A stretch of 37,089 nt of DNA from Candidatus Nezhaarchaeota archaeon WYZ-LMO8 (GTDB taxonomy: Archaea > Thermoproteota > Methanomethylicia > Nezhaarchaeales > WYZ-LMO8): NCBI GenBank assembly GCA_004347965.1, contig QNVF01000009.1:1-37089 (forward strand), written 5' to 3'. Of this stretch, positions 33,001-36,456 are shown piece after piece; the first letter of the stretch is position 1, and each line of letters begins with the position of its first letter. Position numbers: made by a program.

Positions 33001-36000
33001 AGCCCATGACTGCGCCCAAGCCGCCTCTACCAGCTGCTCTATGCTTATTGCTTATTATGCAAGCCATTCTAACCTGGTTCTCTCCAGCAGGACCTATGCA
33101 ACACACCTCGACCTTCTCAAGCCCCAACTCTCTTCTTATAGCATCCTCTGTAGCATCGGTTTCAAGTCCCCATATCTTGCTTGCATCTCGAATCTCAGCT
33201 TTACCGTCGTCGACCACCAAGTATACTGGGCTAGAGCTTCTACCTCTGATGATTATGCCGTCAAACCCAGCCTTCTTCAGTTCAGGTCCCCAGGATCCTC
33301 CACAGTTAGAGTCGAAGATCGTGTTAGTCAATGGAGACTTCGATGACACAACGAATCTACCTGATGCTGGAGCTCTAGTCCCTGTGAGCGGGCCGGTCAT
33401 AAATATTAGCACGTTATCCTCGCTCAGTGGATCAATACCCGGCTTTAAAGCGTCAAAGAGAAGCTTTGCTGAATACCCTCTACCGCCTATAAACTTCATT
33501 GCTACGTTCCAGTCGAGATCTACGACCGCTACGTCGCCTTTACTCAAGTCTACCTCTAGTATCCTGCCACTGTAACCACTCAAACCAGGTCCCTAGCGAC
33601 TTTTTATTTCTCCTTATTTTTAAAGTGTAATTGAGGGTTTCTATCGTGAGGGTGAAAGTAGAGGTTTACGGGTCTCTGAGGAATGTGGTAGGCTGGAAGA
33701 GTGTGGAGATGGAGCTGAGCGAGGACTTTACGCTGGGACAACTACTTGATCTTCTTGTGGAGCAGAAGCCTGAGCTTAAGGAATTGATCTTTGAGGGCGA
33801 AAATTTAAGGGATTACTTAAAGGTGTTTGTAGATGGAAGAGATTGTAGGCTTTTAGGTGGTTTAAAAGCGAAACTTAAGGATGGCTCAACGATATCGATA
33901 TTTCCTCCAGCTGGTGGAGGCCTATTTGAAGCTTAGTTTAGTTATGGAATTCTCTCTTTTCTTCTTAAACTTAGGCATTGAGGATCAGGCTTCTCGCTAT
34001 GTCTCTTCGCATCACTTAAACCAACGAATATGGCTTCACAGTACTTGCACTTAAAAACTCTCCCAATGTTTCCCATGCGTATAAGGACTATATCTCTAGG
34101 TATGTCCTCACCGCCCAACCATTAGAACCCTCCTTAACTTCATCTCTTCGAGTTCGTAAACCCCCTTCTTCTCAAGACCGTACCTTCTAAAAGGCTTTGC
34201 TAGGTGTCTCATCGATCTTGGAGGAGGTAGGTATATTCCTTCGACTTCCTTCCTTGATATTCTTGAAGCAAGCTTAGTTGCTTCAGCAGTTTTAAATCCA
34301 CATCTGCTGCATTTATAGCCTCCTCCCCTTCCTAAGCTCTTCAATCTTTTTCGGCATCTAGGACACAACGGGTTCATCTCCATCACCTTCTCCCTTGCTC
34401 TCAGAATCATGAGCTTCTCAAGGTTTATGGAGAGGGCATCTAAGCCTAAGAGTCTTCTAGCTCCTCCATAGACCTCAACTTCATCGCCAACTTCAAGCTT
34501 CTCTGATGCTCGTCTCACATCACCTGATGGCTTGTATGCGACGCAGTACAGCTCCTCTACGCCATCAGATACTTTGAAGACCACGTGCCCCCCGCTTATG
34601 ACTTTAGGCTTCGATGCAACTTCACCCCTTAAGAGTATTGAGGAGTAGGGCTCTACCTCCCTTACTTTCTTAACTCTTAAGTAGTGGTAATCAGTGCCCT
34701 GATTGCTCCTAATAATCAAGTAGCCAATAGGCTTGCTGTACACCTTTAGGAGACTTGAAGCTTTGAGTAGAACTTGAGGGCTCTCTCCTCTTACGCCGTA
34801 GAGTACTGGATCAGGACCTCGAGGTGTTAGAAGTATTCTCCCAGTCTCTGGGTCGATGTTATTGAATGTGTAGGGCCAAGTCTCAAACTCCATGACCCAC
34901 ACGCTATTGTAGTCCAAGAGTCTCGTCTCCTCCTCACATCTGTAAGCTAAGATCTCGAAGGTGTAATCTCCCTCAGTGAGAGAACCTATAGCTGCTAGTG
35001 CACCTATGAGGCCCAGACCACTCCTGGTCTTAACTACTTTGACGTCGTGGCTTTGTGCTAGTTCTAAAGCTTCACGTAGGGCCACAACACGTCTCAAAGT
35101 TTTCTCATAGAAGTCTAAGAAGTCCTTGTGCAATTCTCCATGTAGTATGGCTATTGCTGGATCGCAGTCATGGTAACTTTGAGTATAGCTCTTAAGCATT
35201 AACGCTAGAAGTTCCTCGATCGATGAGATCACATTGCTTTGAGCCATTAACCTTAAGCACACAGCACCATTACCACGAGTCTTCCAAGGAATGTTGGGGT
35301 TCAACCTTGCTAGTATTGGATAGTCGAGTAACTTGACTTTATCATTAAAGCGCCTCATTATCTCCCTTAGAGCCTCAAACAAAAAGTGGGTTGTACATCC
35401 ACCACTTAAAGAGTCTACACTGTCAACACCTATGTGAAGTACATCGTAGGGCAATTCTCAACCCCGAGCTCCTGGGGAACAAGTATATTCTAAGCTTAAA
35501 TACCTGAAGTAGGTCCTCTTTATACGAGGTGCCGGGAGAGGTCGGGTAACTCTCGGGTGCCTTAGCACCTGAGGAAAGTCCCCCTCCATCGGGGAGCGCG
35601 GCGCCGTAAGGTGTCAACCGAGAGGTTGGGGGTAAAGCCTAAGAAACGACACGTCCACTAGCACATGGCTATGATGGGCTTAAAACCTTGAGGACGCTAG
35701 TGGAATCGTTGAAACGTGGCGACCTCCGCGCGGAATAAGGCGTACCGTGATGAGGTCCCCGACGAGCGGTAAGCCGCATAGTCGAATGTTACCTAAACAG
35801 AAGGGGGATTACGAACCTCACCCGGCACCTCATTAGTTGTACATTGAACCTCTACGTTCTTCCTATTGAAGATACAGTCAACCTCATGTGACGTAAACAA
35901 TATATAGGGTCTAATCACTATTCCTTATGCGCCACGGTGGCGGTGTCGAACGGACTATGAGGGGCTTCTCTCGCCCCTAGAATGAGAGTTCGACCTCCAG

Positions 36001-36456
36001 CCGTGGGATACTAGTGGGGATCCAAACAAACCGGGTTCCCTGTGGAGCTCGGATGTTTGGGTCCGACGTGGGGTGGCGAAGCCCGTCAGTAAAGATGAAC
36101 CCGCCATAAATCTTGCGGCCGTATCCTCGACTCCGGTTGATCCTGCCGGACCCGACCGCTATCGGGGTGGGGCTAAGCCATGCGAGTCGTACGCTCCAGG
36201 CCATGGTGGGGCGTGGCGCACGGCTCAGTAACACGTAGCCAACCTACCCTCGGGACGGGGATAACCCCGGGAAACTGGGGCTAATACCCGATAGGCGATG
36301 GCTCCTGGAATGGGCCATCGCTTAAAGGGGCCTGAGGCCATGCTCCTCAGGTTCGCCCGAGGATGGGGCTGCGGCCCATCAGGTAGTTGGCGGGGTAACG
36401 GCCCGCCAAGCCGATAACGGGTACGGGCCGTGAGAGCGGGAGCCCGGAGATGGGCC

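Follow-up and report, generated by a model that had tools for sequence, protein, structure and literature searches.

The locus

The window analysed here comprises the whole of a 37,089 nt stretch, positions 1–37,089 of the forward strand of contig QNVF01000009.1 in assembly GCA_004347965.1. It belongs to Candidatus Nezhaarchaeota archaeon WYZ-LMO8 (GTDB lineage Archaea; Thermoproteota; Methanomethylicia; Nezhaarchaeales; WYZ-LMO8), a hot-spring archaeon whose genome (G000) amounts to 1.35 Mb in 78 contigs.

A cmscan search of the window places an archaeal RNase P RNA gene (RNaseP_arch, RF00373) at 35534–35823 on the + strand, where it scores 180 bits (gathering score 84; E 4.7e-52) over the full model (1–288 of 288). 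It is followed by the 16S rRNA gene (SSU_rRNA_archaea, RF01959) at 36130–37089 (+), with 945 bits against a gathering score of 50. Only the 5′ part of the 16S gene is present (model positions 1–937), as it is cut by the end of the window and contig. The gap between the Rfam core of the RNase P RNA and the 16S gene is 306 nt, both being on the + strand, which confirms the position given in a preliminary description of this DNA. A search of the genome returned a single RNase P locus and a single SSU locus. On the side of RNase P away from the rRNA lies a gene of the TiaS family, identified by three Pfam domains (TiaS_FLD, 1.9e-30; TiaS_TCKD, 1.1e-19; Zn_ribbon_TiaS, 1.4e-11), so that the window reads TiaS (−), RNase P (+), 16S (+). 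The features are as follows:

34108–35454, − strand: TiaS (tRNA-Ile2 agmatidine synthetase family) gene, from Pfam; divergent from RNase P
35496–35502, + strand: predicted TATA box of the RNase P RNA gene, TTAAATA, from conservation and spacing
35526–35831, + strand: archaeal RNase P RNA (Rfam core 35534–35823), from the covariance model and the P1 arms
35832–35885, + strand: spacer from the RNase P 3′ end to the 16S promoter, non-conserved and lacking a T-run
35886–35908, + strand: predicted BRE/TATA promoter of the 16S–23S operon, ATGTGACGTAAA.AATATATAGG, from conservation
35929–36129, + strand: predicted pre-16S 5′ leader, with near-invariant blocks from 35932

The RNase P RNA gene and its predicted promoter

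The 5′ and 3′ ends of RNase P RNA are paired in helix P1. In the window, an inverted-repeat scan found 17-nt arms at 35526–35542 and 35815–35831 that are 94% complementary, which makes P1 8 bp longer than in the Rfam model. An extension of 6–10 bp is kept in all six family genomes that gave an RNase P match, and in one of them (G008) a C-G pair is replaced by T-A, both sides being altered. The ends of the RNA are thus probably at 35526 and 35831, as judged from this extended helix.

Upstream of the gene, the motif TT.AATA is unchanged in the six family genomes while its flanks vary (alignment A1). The TATA-like 8-mer starts 31 nt 5′ of the extended P1 in the window and between −32 and −25 in all six genomes; such 8-mers peak at −30/−28 in five of the six, over a background of 0–5. 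Comparable boxes peak at −30/−28 in 11–13 of 24 RNase P genes that adjoin a 23S gene (background 0–5), and RNase P genes that are not linked to rRNA have a peak at −34 to −30 (11–12 of 28; background 0–5). The box at 35496–35502 would accordingly be the promoter of the RNase P RNA gene.

The predicted 16S promoter and leader

Between the two genes, the block at 35886–35908 is unchanged in all six family genomes, with the exception of one column (A1), and conservation of the pre-16S leader sets in about 30 nt 3′ of it. The sister families f2 and f3 have an equivalent AAATATAT box at 32–33 nt from the CCACGG of the leader, the same distance as in the window’s own family (f1). The spacing from TATA box to leader is thus unchanged in f2 and f3, where RNase P faces the opposite way. 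The block would act as the promoter of the 16S–23S operon; like the RNase P box, it is a prediction from conservation and spacing.

Transcription is predicted to start near a conserved T.TGC at 35926–35930. The leader contains a hairpin at 35932–36006 and, at about 36069–36086, the putative 5′ strand of the 16S processing stem, which is assigned by homology, as the window ends inside the 16S gene. In the relatives G006, G004 and G009, the leader is complementary to the 16S–23S spacer.

Gene order within the order

Fifteen genomes of the order were searched, ten of which gave an RNase P match. In the window’s own family, RNase P is followed by 16S on one strand in all six genomes with a match (G000, G001, G004, G006, G008 and G009), at gaps of 298–309 nt. 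In the two sister families, the genes are divergent in all four (G010, G011, G012 and G014), with 368–385 nt between the Rfam boundaries. Both arrangements agree with the preliminary description, whose figure of 420–430 nt for the divergent gap had been measured otherwise. Downstream, the own family has tRNA-Ile(GAU) and tRNA-Ala(CGC) genes 3′ of the 23S gene.

In a genome of 1.35 Mb with only one rRNA operon, the chance that a given gene falls no more than 500 nt from one of the operon's ends is less than about 1 in 1000. Because of this low probability and the recurrence of the arrangement across genera, the arrangement is inherited rather than due to chance.

Linkage across the class and phylum

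The linkage of RNase P to the rRNA genes is far wider than the preliminary description saw. It had left the arrangement in other families of the class as a caveat, and the answer is that RNase P there follows the 23S gene. Outside the order, 24 genomes of the class gave an RNase P match. RNase P lies 49–125 nt after 23S on the same strand in 12 of these (five in f4, two in f7, one each in f8 and f9, three in f5) and 0.8–8.6 kb from the 23S end in another nine, all from f5; the remaining three are unplaced in this count. The link in f5 is loosened by insertions of 0.8, 1.3, 4.6 and 8.6 kb. Throughout the class, RNase P is found less than 9 kb from the rRNA operon in all 31 genomes that have both on one contig, in three architectures.

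Beyond the class, RNase P lies 44–122 nt after 23S in at least 11 genomes from at least six families (f11, f14, f20, f21, f26 and f36). The count of 23S-adjacent genes is a lower bound, with several RNase P matches near contig starts (e.g., G057, G099, G090 and G126) left out. Linkage in the phylum sample was judged only from 16S positions, from fetched loci scanned with cmscan, and from BLAST searches that used the 3′ ends of 23S genes as probes. In about 40 genomes of this sample, over 10 kb separates RNase P from the rRNA on a shared contig, and the BLAST probe found a 23S 3′ end within 200 nt of RNase P at none of 20 such unlinked loci, while all three positive controls matched. The adjacency is therefore dispensable, as is also evident from the f5 insertions.

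In f4 (5/5 genomes, from three genera) the 23S–RNase P spacers measure 49–67 nt, and in f36 the spacer is 44 nt. In neither family is RNase P separated from the 3′ strand of the 23S processing stem by a properly spaced TATA-like box.

Flanking genes and the proposed rearrangement history

According to tblastn searches, TiaS adjoins RNase P in f1, f2, f3, f4, f7, f8, f9, part of f5, and f36, and in all of these except f1 it lies 3′ of RNase P on the same strand. The trio of rRNA operon end, RNase P and TiaS is found in the window and in f2, f3, f4, f7, f8 and f9. On the far side of the operon, three genes located 3′ of 23S in f1 are homologues of genes located 5′ of 16S in f7 and f8: a class-I aminoacyl-tRNA synthetase (aaRS; 37–59% identity), aRF1 (52–61%) and an amino-acid kinase (34–43%), for an overall range of 34%–61%. 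Two genes found 3′ of 23S in f2 are likewise homologous to 16S-upstream genes of f7 and f8, and two of the three flank genes have homologues upstream of 16S in f4 as well.

These flanking genes point to an in-place inversion of the rRNA operon in this order. For the class, the ancestral layout would have been (class-I aaRS, aRF1, amino-acid kinase) – 16S – 23S – RNase P – ... – TiaS. The 16S–23S block may then have turned round in place in the ancestor of the order, bringing the 5′ end of 16S back to back with RNase P, a stage that f2 and f3 would have retained. Later, in the own family, RNase P alone would have flipped, giving the tandem RNase P – 16S order. We infer this sequence of inversions from the gene orders described above. 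Apart from the helices of the RNA itself, the inverted-repeat scan found no inverted repeats flanking RNase P in the window that could have mediated the flip.

A single clean inversion was considered as the whole history and rejected. The side on which the flank genes lie agrees with the prediction, but their arrangement among themselves, in order and in strand, deviates: aaRS, aRF1 and the kinase are co-oriented after 23S in f1, while aaRS is on the opposite strand in f2. Further local rearrangements must therefore be assumed.

The proposed ancestral layout is also present in several other families of the phylum. The neighbours share a theme of translation and RNA maturation, including TiaS, a Tsr3-like gene, aRF1, aaRS and an initiator tRNA. 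The last of these, a tRNA(CAU) gene after TiaS in relatives, was considered as the TiaS substrate tRNA-Ile2. This was rejected, because the sequences combine A1:U72 with an anticodon stem that has three G-C pairs, both features of initiator tRNA-Met.

One transcription unit or two

The preliminary description placed RNase P at the head of the rRNA transcription unit and suggested shared or coupled expression. Linkage and conservation stand, but the anatomy of the locus speaks against the step to a single unit. A single unit demands close spacing on the same strand, and this is what is found, at 306 nt in the window and with the tandem order in 6/6 family genomes. The absence of a visible terminator between the genes is also consistent with it. 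However, a promoter is predicted between them, from conservation rather than from a mapped start: the invariant BRE/TATA block sits there and is followed by the leader. Shared expression is further disfavoured by the invariant TATA box that RNase P has of its own, about 30 nt 5′ of the extended P1, and by the 54 nt between RNase P and the 16S promoter block, in which alignment A1 has no conserved columns. In f2 and f3, the divergent layout rules out co-transcription altogether.

The best explanation, and in our view a probable one, is that RNase P is a separate small transcription unit beside the rRNA promoter, the adjacency being an inherited gene order and not an operon. RNase P would be transcribed from the TATA box at 35496–35502, with a predicted start near 35526, to give an RNA of about 35526–35831 closed by the extended P1. 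Directly 3′ of it, the 16S–23S operon would have its own BRE/TATA promoter at 35886–35908 and a predicted start near 35929. Since no T-run terminator follows RNase P, some polymerases may run on from RNase P into the 16S unit, but the rRNA operon would be independent of that. This explanation builds on what was observed directly, namely the genes and the way they are ordered in relatives, the boxes that are conserved and the homology of the flanks; promoter function and transcription starts are deduced from these. The genomes compared are kin and not independent samples.

It is possible, though rather unlikely, that co-localisation was selected without co-transcription. The locus would then provide shared regulation, for instance by a common factor, by growth-rate control or by its position in a chromosomal domain of high transcription. 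Such selection would explain how the adjacency outlasted two inversions, and it is consistent with the proximity of RNase P to the rRNA operon in every class genome with both on one contig, in three architectures, with the 23S–RNase P adjacency in six further families of the phylum, and with the translation and RNA-maturation theme among the neighbours. However, the insertions in f5 and the many unlinked genomes of the phylum sample show that the link can be loosened or lost, and local inversions hold neighbours together even without selection.

Read-through coupling is a more doubtful proposition. Here, the RNase P promoter would serve as an extra upstream rRNA promoter, RNase P would be trimmed from the 5′ end of the precursor, and the two outputs would be partly coupled. 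Co-orientation at 306 nt would allow this, and the stable extended P1 could set the ends of RNase P through trimming. The 3′ side of RNase P also fits: a terminator scan (only its terminator part was used, its sigma-70 promoter part being inapplicable to archaea) found no hairpin-plus-T site after RNase P in the window, and none of the six family genomes has a run of at least four T within 75 nt, compared with 15 of 24 and 16 of 28 other RNase P genes examined. Because of this lack of a T-run or hairpin terminator, a discrete RNase P transcript would need processing or factor-dependent termination, the latter being invisible in sequence. However, the four genomes of f2 and f3 also lack T-runs (0/4), although their RNase P points towards TiaS and away from 16S; the missing terminator thus predates the tandem order. 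The six family genomes are close kin, which makes their 0/6 weak evidence. Moreover, a strongly conserved BRE/TATA block stands between the genes, leader conservation begins only past it, and the spacer 35832–35885 is unconserved.

Assembled RNA does not decide the matter. Metatranscriptome contigs from three libraries (runs X12 and X14 of study P7 and X17 of study P1), compared with positions 35200–36600, cover RNase P at 35543–35824. None of the listed RNA contigs bridges RNase P and 16S, and the bins 35200–35528 and 35858–36092 lack RNA contig cover in all three runs; since contigs cannot show absence, starts or ends, they count neither way on co-transcription.

A bolder and equally unlikely suggestion is that RNase P RNA is an old member of the rRNA locus across much of the phylum and is, in some lineages, truly cut from the rRNA transcript. 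In f4 and f36, which lack a spaced TATA-like box, the ribozyme would mature from the 3′ trailer of the pre-rRNA, and a terminator-less RNase P would feed polymerases into TiaS in f2 and f3 or into the 16S operon in the own family. If this were true, ribosome output and tRNA-processing capacity would be coupled through transcription, a prokaryotic parallel to the way in which RNase P/MRP is associated with rRNA synthesis in the nucleolus.

A joining of RNase P and 16S by misassembly or binning has a negligible probability: the contig does end inside the 16S gene, and misassembly of rRNA genes is frequent in metagenome bins, but the identical junction occurs in five other family genomes, including one-contig and two-contig assemblies, and a DNA contig from an independent run (X4) is unbroken over 35200–36068.

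Relation to known systems and significance

Genes for tRNAs and 5S rRNA lie in or beside rRNA operons, are usually co-transcribed with them, and are excised by RNase P, RNase Z or EndA. As here, small stable RNA genes are thus located at an rRNA locus, but the neighbour in the window is the RNA of the processing enzyme RNase P itself, with its own predicted promoter. In eukaryotes, RNase P and rRNA synthesis are also associated in space, although that is a cell-biological co-localisation, whereas the archaeal case is a gene order. Free-standing archaeal RNase P RNA genes belong to the same RNA family (RF00373) and share the TATA-like box about 30 nt upstream and the closing P1, but mostly have a T-run soon after the 3′ end (at least four T within 75 nt in 16 of 28 examined), unlike those of this order (0/10).

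A further close parallel is the 7S (SRP) RNA: in Methanothermus fervidus and Methanobacterium thermoautotrophicum, its gene is linked to an rRNA operon (Haas et al. 1990; Ostergaard et al. 1987; as cited in PMC3035299 and PMC2174318). In both cases, an archaeal 16S–23S operon has beside it the gene for a stable RNA of the translation apparatus that is not ribosomal. As these sources describe it, however, the 7S linkage involves SRP RNA and another phylum, and in single species affects one operon out of two, whereas RNase P is linked to the only operon, in an association conserved over many families and in three architectures.

A full-text literature search, with subscription journals outside its reach, found no paper describing RNase P–rRNA gene linkage. 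Both genes are textbook material, and the novelty is their lasting linkage: RNase P stands at one end of the sole rRNA operon in every class genome that allowed a judgement, as well as in six or more further families of the phylum, and the linkage outlasts both an operon inversion and an RNase P flip. If it is functional, it would offer a simple and testable example of how archaea couple the making of ribosomes to the maturation of tRNA, and it would be relevant to the old idea, as related in PMC2174318, that genes for the ribonucleoproteins of translation once lay together with the rRNA genes. The lesson of the window itself is that adjacency does not equal an operon. For practical purposes, a contig that carries RNase P RNA together with 16S and 23S provides a useful marker triple for the annotation and binning of these lineages, and the three architectures provide clean rearrangement characters for their phylogeny.

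RNase P RNA and 16S rRNA Genes

A cmscan search of the whole window placed the archaeal RNase P RNA and 16S rRNA genes on one strand at a spacing of 306 nt, as claimed in the preliminary description. The features of the region are:

34108–35454, minus strand: TiaS (tRNA-Ile2 agmatidine synthetase family) ORF, upstream of RNase P
35534–35823, plus strand: archaeal RNase P RNA (RF00373), scoring 180 bits (gathering score 84; E = 4.7e-52) over 288 of 288 model positions
36130 to the end of the window, plus strand: archaeal 16S rRNA (RF01959), 945 bits

No tRNA genes were found in the window by ARAGORN. 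The genome (1.35 Mb in 78 contigs, the window being all of contig C78) has a single locus each for RNase P and 16S. An inverted-repeat scan identified 17-nt arms at 35526–35542 and 35815–35831 around the RNase P RNA; helix P1 therefore exceeds the Rfam model by 8 bp, and the full RNA is probably 35526–35831. The interval 35543–35824 is covered by contigs from three RNA libraries of two studies, so that this RNA, or its counterpart in a nearly identical strain (2–7 differences), is present in RNA libraries, although the contigs are uninformative on starts, ends and bridging.

Gene Order in the Order, the Class and the Phylum

Within the order, 15 genomes were searched and 10 gave an RNase P match; the other five are 69–98% complete. 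All six genomes of the window's own family (f1: G000, G001, G004, G006, G008 and G009) have RNase P followed by 16S on the same strand, with a gap of 298–309 nt, while all four genomes of the two sister families f2 and f3 (G010, G011, G012 and G014) have the genes back to back, with 368–385 nt between them. The earlier comparison, tandem in the own family and divergent in the sister families, is thus borne out, and the adjacency is real, with chance ruled out. A second RNase P RNA match in G014 (183.8 bits) lies on a short contig (G014:C29:11926–12224, minus strand) and has a TATA-like box of its own at −28; its 5' end sequence is unlike that of the 16S-adjacent copy. It may be a bin contaminant (the bin has 3% contamination) or a genuine second gene.

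The other families of the class, which the preliminary description could not see, were resolved with covariance models. RNase P lies 49–125 nt downstream of 23S, on the same strand, in families f4 (five genomes), f7 (two), f8 (one), f9 (one) and f5 (three). In nine other f5 genomes it is 0.8–8.6 kb from the 23S end, two of the nine being convergent, and in a further three f5 genomes the RNase P contig lacks rRNA. With the order included, no more than 9 kb separates RNase P from the rRNA operon in all 31 judgeable genomes of the class. This class is taken here to be GTDB Methanomethylicia; NCBI ranks its groups as separate candidate phyla.

The arrangement extends further. In a phylum sample of 151 genomes, with fetched loci examined by cmscan, 23S is followed by RNase P at 44–122 nt in 11 further genomes from six families outside the class (f11, f14, f20, f21, f26 and f36). 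Read by eye, the same sample also has about 40 genomes, belonging to 14 or more other families, in which over 10 kb of a single contig separates RNase P from 16S. When 23S 3' ends were used as a BLAST probe, none of 20 such unlinked RNase P loci gave a hit, and all three positive controls did. Among named relatives, which are possibly identical with some of the sampled genomes and are left out of the counts, a ‘Candidatus Nezhaarchaeales archaeon’ has the layout of the window (neighbouring protein 72% identical); Candidatus Culexarchaeum nevadense, Candidatus Culexmicrobium thermophilum and a ‘Candidatus Bathyarchaeota archaeon’ have the order 23S, RNase P, TiaS. A further layout close to the rRNA operon occurs in G070 of family f24 (G070:C1:491500–499500): RNase P and 16S are on opposite strands, with RNase P 2.7 kb upstream of 16S, and a tRNA gene co-oriented with RNase P precedes it by 183 nt.

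Flanking Genes and a Proposed Inversion of the Operon

TiaS is co-oriented with RNase P and follows it directly in f2 and f3 (42–60 nt), f9 and f36, and at about 870 nt in f4, f7, f8 and part of f5. Two small genes occupy this longer gap at all four loci with listed ORFs (three named records and G025 of f4; L042, L051, L039 and L013): a Tsr3-like gene, which runs on the opposite strand, and a gene for an AsnC ligand-binding domain, identified by Pfam at L042 only (2110–2964; Ribo_biogen_C with Fer4_RLI, and AsnC_trans_reg). On the other side, 23S is followed in f1 and f2 by genes for a class-I aminoacyl-tRNA synthetase, aRF1 and an amino-acid kinase, homologous to genes upstream of 16S in f7 and f8 (37–59%, 52–61% and 34–43% identity, respectively); aRF1 and the kinase are also upstream of 16S in f4. 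In tests of f5, f11 and f14 genomes, none of these homologues turned up upstream of 16S. With the synthetase, aRF1, Tsr3 and TiaS as neighbours, the rRNA locus is thus set among translation and RNA-maturation genes.

In either layout the operon thus lies between the same two sets of neighbours, but it points in opposite directions. On the simplest reading, 16S–23S would have been inverted where it stood in the order's ancestor, giving the back-to-back state of f2 and f3, in which RNase P and TiaS still share a strand, as they did ancestrally; RNase P alone would then have flipped in f1. This order of events is derived from outgroups rather than a rooted tree, and the internal order of the flanking genes does not fit one clean inversion, so further local rearrangements are called for.

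Several tRNA genes also lie in these neighbourhoods. A tRNA(CAU) gene with encoded CCA follows TiaS in the 23S–RNase P–TiaS relatives (L042 4417–4494, L051 4383–4460, L039 5142–5219). It was considered as the TiaS substrate tRNA-Ile2 and rejected: A1:U72 and three anticodon-stem G–C pairs, which we take to be identity features of initiator tRNA-Met, make it look like the latter. In f1, the position held by RNase P in other families, about 110 nt past 23S, has a tRNA with a GAT anticodon loop and an apparent intron (‘???’ in ARAGORN, probably tRNA-Ile), along with tRNA-Ala(CGC) (L145 5962–6140, L146 5844–5919, L147 301–475).

Promoters, Termination and Read-Through

In an alignment of the six f1 genomes, the sequence upstream of RNase P is variable except for an invariant TT.AATA at 35496–35502, with the invariant GGTGC of the extended P1 about 26 nt past it. 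Downstream, 35832–35885 is not conserved; it is followed by a block at 35886–35908, ATGTGACGTAAA.AATATATAGG, invariant but for one column, a conserved T.TGC at 35926–35930 and a near-invariant leader from 35932. The pre-16S leader has a hairpin at 35932–36006, and from complementarity between leader and 16S–23S spacer in G006, G004 and G009 we infer the 5' strand of the 16S processing stem further along. The sister-family alignment has an equivalent AAATATAT box at the same 32–33 nt from the leader's CCACGG, even though RNase P there points away. TT.AATA and the 35886–35908 block are accordingly read as two separate predicted archaeal BRE/TATA promoters. Only 71 nt (35455–35525) separate the TiaS start codon from the RNase P 5' end, and the TTAAATA box, being near-palindromic, might work for either gene.

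As a spacing control, TATA-like 8-mers (at least seven A/T, containing TA) were counted from the extended P1 start over related, non-independent genomes. One starts at −32 to −25 in all six f1 genomes. The 24 post-23S RNase P genes peak at −30 (11) and −28 (13), against 0–5 at most other offsets, and the 28 unlinked genes at −34 to −30 (11–12). Thus most RNase P genes, even those directly behind 23S, seem from these spacings to keep their own promoter. Exceptions are f4, where none of five has such a box at −36 to −24, f36 and, by the same criterion, f21.

A terminator scan found no hairpin-plus-T terminator within 35400–36200. Runs of at least four T within 75 nt after RNase P are absent from all six f1 and all four f2/f3 genomes, versus 15 of 24 post-23S and 16 of 28 unlinked genes; T-rich runs do follow 23S in relatives. 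Because RNase P runs into TiaS in f2 and f3, the lack of a terminator is older than the tandem order. For this window, the proposal that RNase P heads the rRNA transcription unit with shared expression overreaches, as two promoters are predicted, not one unit; with no terminator seen after RNase P, some polymerases that start there may read through into 16S.

Precedents

The wider pattern, in which RNase P RNA is located at one or other end of the rRNA operon in the class and beyond, is more interesting. The adjacency appears to have persisted despite an inversion of the operon and a flip of the RNase P gene, and to be undescribed so far; a full-text literature search found no published description of archaeal RNase P–rRNA linkage. 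It adds to a known theme of stable-RNA genes tied to rRNA operons. The closest precedent, cited in both PMC3035299 and PMC2174318, is the 7S RNA gene of Methanothermus fervidus and Methanobacterium thermoautotrophicum, which is linked to an rRNA operon. PMC2174318 uses that linkage to argue that translation RNPs were perhaps once encoded together, and also mentions nucleolar RNase P.

Other Observations

The 23S gene of G006 (G006:C1:689379–692751) is 3373 nt long, versus about 3145 nt in G004 and G009, and other families of the phylum have 16S genes of 2.1–3.2 kb (G162, G060, G109, G101 and G059). These genes, which far exceed the model in length, probably carry introns or insertions. Elsewhere in the window, an 834-aa ORF at 31079–33583 (minus strand) encodes a full aldehyde:ferredoxin oxidoreductase (AFOR_N and AFOR_C) fused to a C-terminal domain of the OMP-decarboxylase/HUMPS family (residues 614–819). 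With its hexulose-phosphate-synthase-like domain, the fusion could channel formaldehyde.
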